Below are positions 2,490-38,280 of a stretch of DNA of 39,855 bases, in pieces. Positions within the stretch are counted from its first letter, which is position 1; every line of letters begins with the position of its first letter. Under the pieces are notes generated by a model. The model worked only from the letters and a program-made list of their open reading frames with translations. It was not told where the DNA came from and searched no databases. This DNA is from a virus. Its lineage: Duplodnaviria > Heunggongvirae > Uroviricota > Caudoviricetes. The DNA is taken from IMG/VR virus record IMGVR_UViG_2563366875_000003; one strand, 5' to 3'. Both the position numbers and the translations under genes were made by a program.

Positions 2490-2644
2490 ACAGCTCCCCG
2501 TTTATTATTTATCTCCTCAGCCAGCCGCTGTGCTTTCAGGGGATTTCGGATAACAGAAAGGCCGGGAAATACCCAGCCTCGCTTCGTAACGGAGTAGACG
2601 AAAGTGATCGTGCCTACGCGGATATTATCGTGAGGATGTTTCAT
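2462..2644 (-). CDS. Lambda orf60a-like small protein
   Basis: ORF 2462-2650 with start at MKHPHDN (2644); 60 aa; overlaps the exo stop in the ATGA style. Confidence 0.55.
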
Positions 2645-3321
2645 CGCCATTGCTCCCCAAATACAAAACCAATTTCAGCCAGTGCCTCGTCCATTTTTTC
2701 GATGAACTCCGGCACCATCTCGTCAAAACTCGCTATATACTTTTCATTCCGCTCAATCACGACATAATGCAGGCCTTCACGCTTCATACGCGGGTCATAG
2801 TTGGCAAAGTACCAGGCATCTTTTCGCGTCACCCACATGCTGTACTGCACCTGGGCCATGTAAGCCGATTTTATTGCCTCGAAACCACCGAGCCGGAATT
2901 TCATGAAATCCCGGGAGGTAAACGGGCATTTCAGTTCAAGGCCGTTGCCGTCACTGCATAAACCATCGGGAGAGCAGGCGGTGCGCATACTTTCGTCGCG
3001 ATAGATGATCGGGGATTCAGTAACATTCACGCCGGAAGTAAACTCAAACAGGGCTCTGGCGTCATTCTCGTACTGTTTTCCCCAGGCCAGCGCCTTAGCG
3101 TTAACTTCCGGAGCCACACCGGTGCAAATCTCAGCCAGCAGGGTGTGAAAGTAGGACATTTTCATGTCAGGCCACTTTTTTCCGGAGCGGGGTTTTGCTA
3201 TCACATTGTGAACTTCTGAAGCCGTGATGACGCCGAGTCGTAATTTGTTCCACGCATCATCTCCCTGTTCGACAGCTCTCACGTCGATCCCGGTACGCTG
3301 CAGGATAATGTCCGGTGTCAT
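2641..3321 (-). CDS. exo: Lambda exonuclease (Red-alpha, YqaJ family)
   Basis: 226-aa [27 protein letters not shown]...GEQWR, recognised as lambda Exo essentially end to end. Confidence 0.95.
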
Positions 3322-4103
3322 GCAGCCACCTTCTGCTCAGTGGCTTTCTGTTTCAGGAATCCAAGAGCTTTCACTGCTTCGGCCTGTGTCAGTTCTGACG
3401 ATGCGCGAATGTCGCGGCGAAATATCTGGGAACAGAGCGGCAATAAGTCGTCATCCCATGTTTTATCCAGGGCGATCAGCAGAGTGTTAATCTCCTGCAT
3501 GGTTTCATCGTTAACCGGAGTGATGTCGCGTTCTGGCTGACGTTCTGCAGTGTATGCAGTATTTTCGACAATGCGCTCGGCTTCATCCTTGTCATAGATA
3601 CCAGCAAATCCGAAGGCCAGACGGGCACACTGAATCATGGCTTTATGCCGTAACATCCGTTTGGGATGCGACTGCTACGGCCCCGTGATTTCTCTGCCTT
3701 CGCGGGTTTTGAATGGTTCGCGGCGGCATTCATCCATCCATTCGGTAACGCAGATCGGATGATTACGGTCCTTGCGGTAAATCCGGCATGTACAGGATTC
3801 ATTGTCCTGCTCAAAGTCCATGCCATCAAACTGCTGGTTTTCATTGATGATGCGGGACCAGCCATCAACGCCCACCACCGGAACAATGCCGTTCTGCTTA
3901 TCAGGGAAGGCGTAAATTTCTTTCGTCCACGGATTAAGGCCGTACTGGTTGGCGACGATCAGCAATGCGATGAACTGCGCATCGCTGGCATCACCTTTAA
4001 ATGCCGTCTGGCGAAGAGTGGTGATCAGTTCCTGTGGGGCGACAGAATCCATGCCGACACGTTCAGCCAGCTTCCCTGCCAGCGTTGCGAGTGCTGTACT
4101 CAT
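3318..4103 (-). pseudogene. bet: bet (Red-beta, RecT-family annealase) interrupted by an in-frame amber codon
   Basis: Two same-frame ORFs: 3675-4103 (MSTALATLAGKLAERVG...REITGP then stop) and 3318-3656 (MLRHKAMIQCARLAF...EQKVAA). They are separated only by TAG (plus-strand cta at 3675-3677) plus six in-frame codons QSHPKR. Lambda Bet is one 261-aa protein with W at this codon. Confidence 0.9.
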
Positions 4104-4108
4104 CCGTT

Positions 4109-4405
4109 TTATACCTCTGAATCAATATCAACCTGGTGGTGAGCAATGGTTTCAACCATGTACTGGATGTGTTCTGCCATGCGCTCCTGAAACTCAACAT
4201 CGTCATCAAACGCACGGGTAATGGCTTTTTTGCTGGCCCCGTGGCGTTGCAAATGATCGATGCATAGCGATTCAAACAGGTGCTGGGGCAGGCCTTTTTC
4301 CATGTCGTCTGCCAGTTCTGCCTCTTTCTCTTCACGGGCGATCTGCTGGTAGTGACGCGCCCAGCTCTGAGCCTCAAGACGATCCTGAATGTAATAAGCG
4401 TTCAT
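4109..4405 (-). CDS. gam: Gam, short form GamS (RecBCD inhibitor)
   Basis: 98-aa [24 protein letters not shown]...[10 protein letters not shown], recognised as lambda Gam. Confidence 0.9.
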
Positions 4406-4480
4406 GGCTGAACTCCTGAAAATGGCTGTGAAAATATCGCCCGCGAAATGCCAGGCTGATTAGGAAAACAGGAAAGAGGA

Positions 4481-14735: not shown

Positions 14736-15818
14736 TTAGAACTGGTAAACCATACCTACAGCAACGATATCATCGGTAGCAACGCCAGATGCTTTCGTGA
14801 AATCGCTCTTATCAATCAGGTTGATTTTGTAGTCAACAAAAGTGGACATATTTTTGTTGAAGTAATAGGTTGCACCTACATCAACATATTCAACCAGGTC
14901 CTGATCACCCCAAACACCCAAGTCTTTTCCTTTAGAATGCAGGTAAGCAACGGATGGACGCAGGCCGAAGTCGAACTGATATTGTGCAACAGCTTCGAAG
15001 TTTTGTGCTTTGTTGGCAATATGGTTATTACCAAAAACAGTCATGTTCTGGGTTTCAGAATAGGTGGTGGCCAGATAGATGTTGTTCGCATCATATTTCA
15101 GACCAGCTGCCCATACTTCAGCATTTTGACCAGAAGCATTCAGACCGTTGTTACCGTAGATAACCTGATTATTAGTGCGATCAGATTTAGCATAGGTTGC
15201 ACCCACGCCGAATCCTTCATACTCATAAGTAGTTGAGAAACCGAAACCATCGCCATTAGCTTCAGTTACTTCATTTCGGTCATTTTTGCCCTGATACTGA
15301 GCTGCAAAGTTCAGGCCATCAACCAGACCAAAGAAGTCGTTGTTACGATAAGTTGCAACACCTGTGGTGCGACCAGTCATGAATACATCTGTTTGGGTCC
15401 AGGTATCGCCACCGAATTCTGGCAGAACGTCGGTCCATGCACCAATATCGTATGCTACACCGTAGTTACGGCCATAATCGATGGAGCCGTAGTCACCGAA
15501 TTTCAGGCCAGCGAAGGCAAGACGGGTTTTATCTTTGGAGGAACCTTGAGATTCAGCGCGGTTGCCTTTGAATTCATATTCCCACTGACCGAAACCAGTC
15601 AGTTGATCGTTGATTTGGGTTTCACCTTTGAAGCCAAGACGGGCATAAGTAGTATCACCATCATCTGCATCATTAGAGGAGAAGTAGTGCTTAGCATTAA
15701 CTTTCCCGTACAGATCCAGCTTGTTACTGTCTTTATTATAAATTTCAGCTGCCTGAGCAGACATCGCCATCAGTACTGATGCAGCTACAGCAGAAATTGC
15801 CACTGTTAATTTTTTCAT
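14736..15818 (-). CDS. OmpC/OmpF-family general porin (Lc / NmpC-like lysogenic-conversion moron), apparently intact
   Basis: 360-aa ORF with signal peptide [23 protein letters not shown], conserved porin N-terminus [17 protein letters not shown] and C-terminal beta-barrel signature ...VAVGMVYQF. Opposite strand to flanking phage genes with its own AT-rich upstream region. Confidence 0.9.
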
Positions 15819-17609: not shown

Positions 17610-17903
17610 TTATTGTGAGCAATACACACGCGCTTCCAGCGGAGTATAAATGCCTAAAGTAATAAAACCGAGAAATCCATTTACGAATGTTTGCTGGGTT
17701 TCTGTTTTAACAACATTTTCTGCGCCGCCACAAATTTTGGCTGCATCAACAGTTTTCTCCTGTCCAATTCCCGAAACGAAGAAATGATGGGTGATGGTTT
17801 CCTTTGGTGTTACTGCTGTCGGTTTGTTTCCAACAGTAAACGTCTGTTGAGCACATCCTGTAATAAGCATTGCCAGAGCGGCAGAAAACAACATTTTTTT
17901 CAT
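17610..17903 (-). CDS. bor: Bor lipoprotein (serum-resistance / Iss family)
   Basis: Internal Met of ORF 17610-17951: MKKMLFSAALAMLITGCAQQTFTV... (97 aa, lipobox LITGC). Confidence 0.85.
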   Translation of the reverse strand: MKKMLFSAALAMLITGCAQQTFTVGNKPTAVTPKETITHHFFVSGIGQEKTVDAAKICGGAENVVKTETQQTFVNGFLGFITLGIYTPLEARVYCSQ

Positions 17904-37645: not shown

Positions 37646-38280
37646 ATGCGTAAAGTTTGTGCAGCAATTTTGTCCGCAGCCATTTGTCTGGCCGTATCCG
37701 GTGCGCCTGCATGGGCGTCTGAACATCAGTCCACGCTGAGCGCGGGGTATCTTCATGCCTCGACGAACGTCCCCGGCAGTGATGATCTGAACGGGATTAA
37801 CGTGAAATACCGTTATGAGTTTACGGACACACTGGGGCTGGTGACGTCATTCAGCTATGCAGGAGACTGGGGCTGGTGACGTCATTCAGCTATGCAGGAG
37901 ACAAGAATCGCCAGCTGACCCGTTACAGCGATACCCGCTGGCATGAAGATTCCGTTCGTAACCGCTGGTTCAGCGTAATGGCGGGGCCGTCTGTGCGCGT
38001 GAATGAATGGTTCAGCGCGTATGCGATGGCGGGTGTGGCTTACAGCCGTGTGTCGACTTTCTCCGGGGATTATCTTCGCGTAACTGACAACAAGGGGAAA
38101 ACGCACGACGTGCTGACCGGAAGTGATGACGGTCGCCACAGCAACACGTCTCTGGCGTGGGGGGCTGGCGTGCAGTTTAACCCGACCGAATCCGTGGCCA
38201 TTGATATTGCTTATGAAGGCTCCGGCAGTGGTGACTGGCGCACTGACGGTTTCATCGTGGGTGTCGGTTATAAATTCTGA
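37646..38280 (+). pseudogene. lom: lom (Ail/OmpX/PagC-family outer-membrane protein) disrupted by a 35-bp tandem duplication
   Basis: Signal peptide MRKVCAAILSAAICLAVSGAPAWA; ORF 37646-37879 stops early (...TSFSYAGDWGW then stop) and ORF 37876-38280 resumes with ...TSFSYAGDKNRQLTRY...GVGYKF. The two pieces sum to a normal 199-aa Lom once one repeat copy is removed. Confidence 0.85.
37832..37901 (+). repeat. Perfect 35-bp direct tandem duplication inside lom
   Basis: CTGGGGCTGGTGACGTCATTCAGCTATGCAGGAGA at 37832-37866 is repeated exactly at 37867-37901 (boundary ambiguous by 1 nt). Confidence 0.9.

Follow-up and report, generated by a model that had tools for sequence, protein, structure and literature searches.

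Whether a phage gene that appears as two shorter reading frames still does its work is a question that the recombination gene bet raises in the 39,855-nt stretch of DNA analyzed here (hereafter the window), which carries a lambdoid prophage. The two halves could be the remains of one broken annealing protein, two separate products, a single protein made in full when a host suppressor is present, or the outcome of a sequencing error. With a probability of about 0.88, we judge this to be a recent, strain-private, pseudogenizing nonsense mutation in the bet of a near-intact lambdoid prophage of Escherichia coli KTE210, with the Red pathway dead. We propose that a single G>A transition turned Trp143 from TGG into the amber codon TAG, so that translation from the normal bet start would halt after residue 142. 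The resulting fragment would be without Trp143, without the DNA-binding and oligomerization residues of alpha-5 and motif 6, and without the C-terminal domain on which Exo and SSB dock. Unable to anneal DNA, it would leave the Red pathway dead despite intact gam and exo, and the lesion would be tolerated as ordinary decay of an accessory prophage gene, since neither lysogeny nor lytic growth in recA+ hosts requires bet.

The bet frame and its closest alleles

The features of the locus are collected in Table 1. In the list of open reading frames, the 142-aa and 112-aa ORFs of bet share one frame, and only the TAG and the codons for QSHPKR lie between them, just as the earlier note had described the two halves; its coordinates, frame and spacer are all exact. 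Read on the minus strand within 3720..3640, the codons run CGC GAA GGC AGA GAA ATC ACG GGG CCG TAG CAG TCG CAT CCC and continue with AAA CGG ATG TTA CGG CAT AAA, and the 112-aa ORF accordingly begins MLRHKAMIQCARLAF (MLRHKA). The spacer holds no GTG, TTG or other start codon and no Shine-Dalgarno motif. A full-length bet frame of about 261 codons, comprising the domain of residues 1-177 and the C-terminal domain, is absent from the window, and the RecT profile is split accordingly: Pfam RecT matches the N-terminal fragment over profile positions 5-143 of 198 (E 3.9e-20) and the C-terminal fragment over positions 160-195, the latter below the cut-off. The stop thus falls within the Pfam RecT domain. 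It is the sole lesion of the bet frame, D22A being an added missense change.

Table 1. Positions of bet, its parts and its neighbors in the window
Feature	Position	Strand	Detail
bet (whole, interrupted)	4103..3318	minus	TAG at codon 143
bet N-terminal fragment ORF, codons 1-142 plus TAG	3675..4103	minus	142 aa, ends ...REGREITGP
bet N-terminal fragment as truncated RecT/Redbeta DNA-binding domain	3675..4103	minus	Pfam RecT PF03837
D22A (GAC to GCC), second strain-private bet change	4039	minus	base-by-base comparison
Premature amber TAG in place of Trp143 (TGG)	3675..3677	minus	mutated base 3676
Six sense codons QSHPKR, Bet residues 144-149	3657..3674	minus	context GCCGTAGCAGTCGCATCCCAAACGGATG
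bet C-terminal remnant ORF, residues 150-261, from Met150 (3656..3654)	3318..3656	minus	112 aa
exo (lambda exonuclease), intact	2641..3321	minus	226 aa; 7/226 residues differ from lambda Exo
gam, 98-aa form (GamS), intact	4109..4405	minus	Pfam Gam 1-98 of 98, E 2e-64

The protein is readily placed by its resemblance to lambda Bet (Redbeta; PDB 7UJL residues 1-177, 6M9K and 8TFU), with which 258 of 261 residues are the same when codon 143 is taken as Trp. A phmmer search of the PDB returns 7ujl_A (E 2e-121) and 8tfu_A (E 9e-46); the solved lambda structures span both domains, and the window protein is 99% identical to them. The Trp that the earlier note placed after REITGP in lambda Bet is indeed there, 7ujl_A reading ...REITGPWQSHPKRMLRHKA... 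at this point. Unlike lambda bet, the window gene is stopped at codon 143 and also carries D22A and A255T, so that its product terminates within the DNA-binding domain. The N-terminal fragment equals lambda Bet residues 1-142 apart from D22A, and the C-terminal remnant, which matches the 8tfu and 6m9k chains in the PDB search, corresponds to the end of the N-terminal domain together with the Exo/SSB-binding C-terminal domain.

Base 3676 is now T on the plus strand and was ancestrally C, a G>A change on the coding strand at bet nucleotide 428. This one-base conversion of TGG to TAG, which the earlier note had put forward, is seen against each of three alleles: lambda, the prophage of strain 2017.18.02CC (L001) and GF131. 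In nucleotide alignment with lambda NC_001416, 17 of 786 nt differ: 13 of the changes are synonymous, two together make A255T, and the remaining two yield D22A and the stop. The 18 differences from the L001 allele are 16 synonymous changes, D22A and W143*. The closest allele among complete genomes, that of GF131 (99.7%), differs at two positions only, again D22A and W143*; both alter the protein and none is synonymous. In every bet copy aligned with that of the window at single-base level (lambda, L001, L004, L006 and L008, the last three described below), codon 22 is GAC. The excess of synonymous over missense change against L001, 16 to 1, indicates long-standing purifying selection on bet. 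As the nearest allele is two nucleotides away and the half of bet downstream of the TAG shows no further damage relative to GF131, the inactivation appears to be recent.

Residues lost beyond codon 142

Conservation of Trp at codon 143 had been singled out as something to be checked among homologs, and the position is Trp in 140 of 141 diverse Bet homologs, in an alignment of 50%-identity cluster representatives and the full-length reference whose median identity to Bet is about 50%. The cryo-EM study of Redbeta177 describes W143 as "almost universally conserved", places it in the 3-10 helix of motif 6 and has it hydrogen-bond to the template-strand backbone (PMC9512822). The same work finds that residues 1-177 suffice for ssDNA binding and annealing and form the minimal domain, within which K148, K154, K172 and R161 are critical, K148 and R149 make oligomer contacts, and H153, K154 and R161 bind DNA, mutation of R161 lowering function about 1000-fold in vivo; binding of lambda Exo, and possibly of SSB, is assigned to residues 178-261 (PMC9512822).

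The stop removes residues 143-261, and with them Trp143, K148, R149, H153, K154, R161 and the Exo/SSB-binding C-terminal domain. Because the 1-142 fragment lacks Trp143, the other DNA-binding residues and the C-terminal domain, we predict that Bet is null, the fragment most likely having no annealing or recombination activity. Of the two outcomes offered by the earlier note, the first, a prophage without working Red recombination, is thereby well supported, to judge from the conserved residues that are lost. Low-level natural readthrough of the UAG, or reinitiation at Met150, could still yield a trace of product, and the C-terminal remnant is probably either untranslated or weakly translated by reinitiation.

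Readings in which bet is split, suppressed or miscalled

Among readings that compete with simple loss of function, the one that survives best is a functional split gene, although we regard it as very unlikely. Ribosomes would reinitiate at Met150, 18 nt after the UAG, and release a free fragment of residues 150-261, which would bind Exo and SSB in a regulatory or dominant-negative role while keeping the translational coupling to exo. Such reinitiation is possible in principle, there being an ATG six codons past the stop, and the fragment would include all of the Exo/SSB-binding domain known from 6m9k and 8tfu. Other strains, too, repeatedly show nonsense mutations a short way upstream of Met150. 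However, no Shine-Dalgarno motif precedes Met150 (context CATCCCAAACGGATG), and the recurrence itself has another explanation once the individual cases are considered.

The exact 112-aa Met150 ORF is called on many contigs, and we read ten such places. Two (L010 and L011) are KTE210 or identical to it, and two more (L012 and L013) are contig ends. In L004 (SRR31503444) and L008 (SRR10426956), each at 2054-2839, W143 has gone from TGG to TGA; the two opal alleles differ both in bet background (5 and 16 nt from the window) and in prophage context. In L006 (ERR3375559, 2054-2839) it is S145 that has become a stop, TCG to TAG. Other strains have lost bet by insertion or deletion, which argues against maintenance of a split arrangement: an IS3-family element replaces the first 149 bet codons in the O157:H7 chromosome CP066753 (L005, 1234-2447), a deletion junction lies at bet codon 151 in L007, and L009 (SRR21846767, about 2440-2500) has an in-frame gam-bet deletion fusion at a TGGCAG microhomology. 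The homolog search returned further Bet proteins that are truncated, internally deleted or fused to an integrase. Bet inactivation is therefore recurrent and heterogeneous among E. coli strains.

As a separate observation on these fusions, P0018, P0014 and P0017 join Bet from residue 1 to about 196 to an integrase-like C-terminus (307 aa, PF03837 and PF00589). P0018 is found on 77 contigs, complete chromosomes included, and is apparently a common deletion product of cryptic E. coli prophages.

The concentration of lesions just upstream of Met150 follows from the design of the look-up and from mutation bias, and selection need not be invoked. A look-up by the Met150 ORF catches only those lesions that fall after Met123, and codons 124-149 offer 12 one-step routes to a stop, of which three are transitions and two of these are at Trp143; the whole gene has 26 transition routes to a stop. 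We accordingly rejected the Met150 ORF as a conserved second gene, the heterogeneous upstream lesions and contig ends amounting to an ascertainment effect. That recurrent stops before Met150 reflect selection for uncoupling the C-terminal domain of Bet from its annealing domain is, in our estimation, highly unlikely; if it were true, a free Exo/SSB-binding peptide made by reinitiation at Met150 would modulate host or phage recombination.

Nor is the split arrangement conserved. Across 5,426 complete E. coli genomes, the 61-mer centered on the TAG finds 3,084 matching records (4,109 places), none of them exact; nor is there an exact match among 170 phage records, and the same 61-mer with TGA has none in the 5,426 genomes. 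As this is a homology-based observation to which a chance test is not applicable, the relevant control is the 61-mer with TGG, which is found exactly in 2,423 complete-genome records. GTDB species representatives, IMG/VR and JGI metagenome contigs likewise contain no exact copy of a TAG-bearing 36-mer. On these grounds a conserved split bet was also rejected, no exact amber 36-mer or 61-mer match having turned up in the collections searched. A stop followed by an independent second protein in close relatives, which had been named as the observation that would overturn the lesion, is not a conserved feature of any relative in these collections. In the collections searched, the amber allele is private to KTE210 and the two read-run assemblies that match it.

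The second outcome offered by the earlier note, a conditional allele whose function reveals the suppressor status of the host, is not supported, and we consider it extremely improbable. Here an amber-suppressor tRNA, supplied by the host or by a co-resident element, would give full-length Bet. The stop is of the appropriate kind, a UAG that classical suppressors read, and it is the only lesion of the frame. In classical lambda red and bet amber mutants, used with supE and supF hosts, a UAG in bet abolishes Red recombination in hosts that lack a suppressor. However, no tRNA gene was found in the 39.9-kb window, and KTE210 is a wild strain of clinical origin. The amber suppressors standard in E. 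coli supply Gln, Tyr, Ser, Leu or Lys and not Trp, so that a suppressed Bet would be altered at its most conserved residue, one that contacts DNA and is nearly invariant among homologs; this conservation argues that Gln, Tyr or Ser at 143 would be damaging. The TGA alleles at the same codon in independent strains are not read by amber suppressors, which argues for plain loss of function, and they show that loss of this codon is tolerated in nature.

The likeness to the laboratory bet ambers is therefore one of kind, each being an in-frame UAG in bet. The KTE210 allele differs from them in being natural, in lying in the resident prophage of a clinical isolate and in striking a residue that suppressors do not restore, and prophage gene decay is the apter match. 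Literature searches on the classical amber alleles of lambda bet, on polarity in such alleles and on amber suppressors in natural isolates returned nothing useful.

Apart from GCA_000351145.1 (scaffold KB732522.1, 4.66 Mb), the exact 142-aa product occurs only in Logan assemblies that agree with the window, and a cluster look-up identifies the strain as E. coli KTE210, a clinical isolate, with the protein ELD25258.1. The window is 100% identical to KB732522.1 over the 14,103 nt compared. A Logan contig of SRR647331 is 100% identical over 10,835 nt, TAG included, and the bet on a Logan contig of SRR630971 is identical to that of the window, again with the TAG. The check on base 3676 in the reads that had been called for comes out in favor of the stop, in that assemblies built straight from reads retain it. 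The isolate behind the GenBank assembly is probably also the source of both read sets; the Logan agreement excludes an error of assembly, though not a mutation that arose in the laboratory stock. We therefore give next to no credence to a sequencing or assembly artefact hiding a true TGG codon, for although the difference is a single base in a short-read draft assembly of 2013, the KB732522.1, SRR647331 and SRR630971 assemblies agree base for base and a high-coverage Illumina consensus seldom has substitution errors.

The prophage around bet

With the competing readings weighed, a private pseudogenizing mutation remains the favored account of bet, and the rest of the prophage gives this loss its setting. 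The lambdoid prophage of the window sits at the intD/DLP12 site, beside fimZ and an Arg-tRNA gene. Its genes run int - ... - exo - bet - gam - kil - cIII - ... - N - rexB/rexA - cI - cro - cII - O - P - nin region - Q - porin - lysis - terminase - head - tail - J - lom - tail fiber. We set the window against 60 proteins annotated in the L001 region and found counterparts for 57; ynaM, ydfK and pinR, which lie beyond the window end, have none, and neither do a tail-fiber assembly gene (off the window) and an immunity-region gene (which differs). Among the 57 counterparts 55 are intact, bet alone having an internal stop and lom alone being split, and it is because only these two are broken that we call the prophage nearly intact. 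In lom (37646-38280, plus strand), a perfect 35-bp tandem duplication, ACTGGGGCTGGTGACGTCATTCAGCTATGCAGGAG, present in 2.1 copies at 37831-37902, frameshifts the gene into ORFs of 77 and 134 aa; in L001 the 35-bp unit occurs once and Lom is intact at 199 aa.

The prophage also bears cargo, a porin gene at 14739-15818 and the serum-survival lipoprotein gene iss at 17613-17903; the porin protein shares only 91% identity with its counterpart in the closest prophage.

The genes flanking bet keep the arrangement of lambda, with the gam-bet-exo order and the ATGA overlap of bet and exo common to both. The exo ATG overlaps the bet TGA in this ATGA and has its own Shine-Dalgarno sequence, AAGGTGG, 4 nt upstream. 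Transcription from lambda pL is N-antiterminated, and we infer that Exo is probably still made, without its partner, from its own ribosome-binding site and N-antiterminated transcription. Exo and Gam had both been taken to be intact, and this stands for Exo and for the 98-aa form of Gam, which is 99% identical to its L001 relative. It does not extend to the 138-aa form. An extra T in the T-run at 4419-4422 (minus strand), upstream of the gam ATG at 4405, frameshifts the 138-aa gam ORF, so that the 40-codon N-terminal extension, annotated in lambda and open in L001, is out of frame and only the 98-aa form is possible.

Seen in this setting, the bet amber of KTE210 is real but ordinary, and nothing new in kind. 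It belongs with routine prophage gene decay, as in the cryptic prophages of the DLP12 site, where accessory genes are likewise lost by heterogeneous private lesions. The KTE210 prophage differs from those in still being near complete, at an early stage of decay.

Several consequences follow for how this prophage is described and what it may do. The proper annotation of the locus is a single bet pseudogene, not two genes; the GenBank record of KTE210 labels the 142-aa fragment 'phage recombination protein Bet'. The KTE210 prophage is expected to be without Red-mediated recombination, and is probably still inducible. Loss of Red would leave it without the relaxed homologous exchange that drives lambdoid mosaicism. 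Finally, the locus offers a small, clean example of Trp codons as the easiest nonsense targets in decaying prophage genes.
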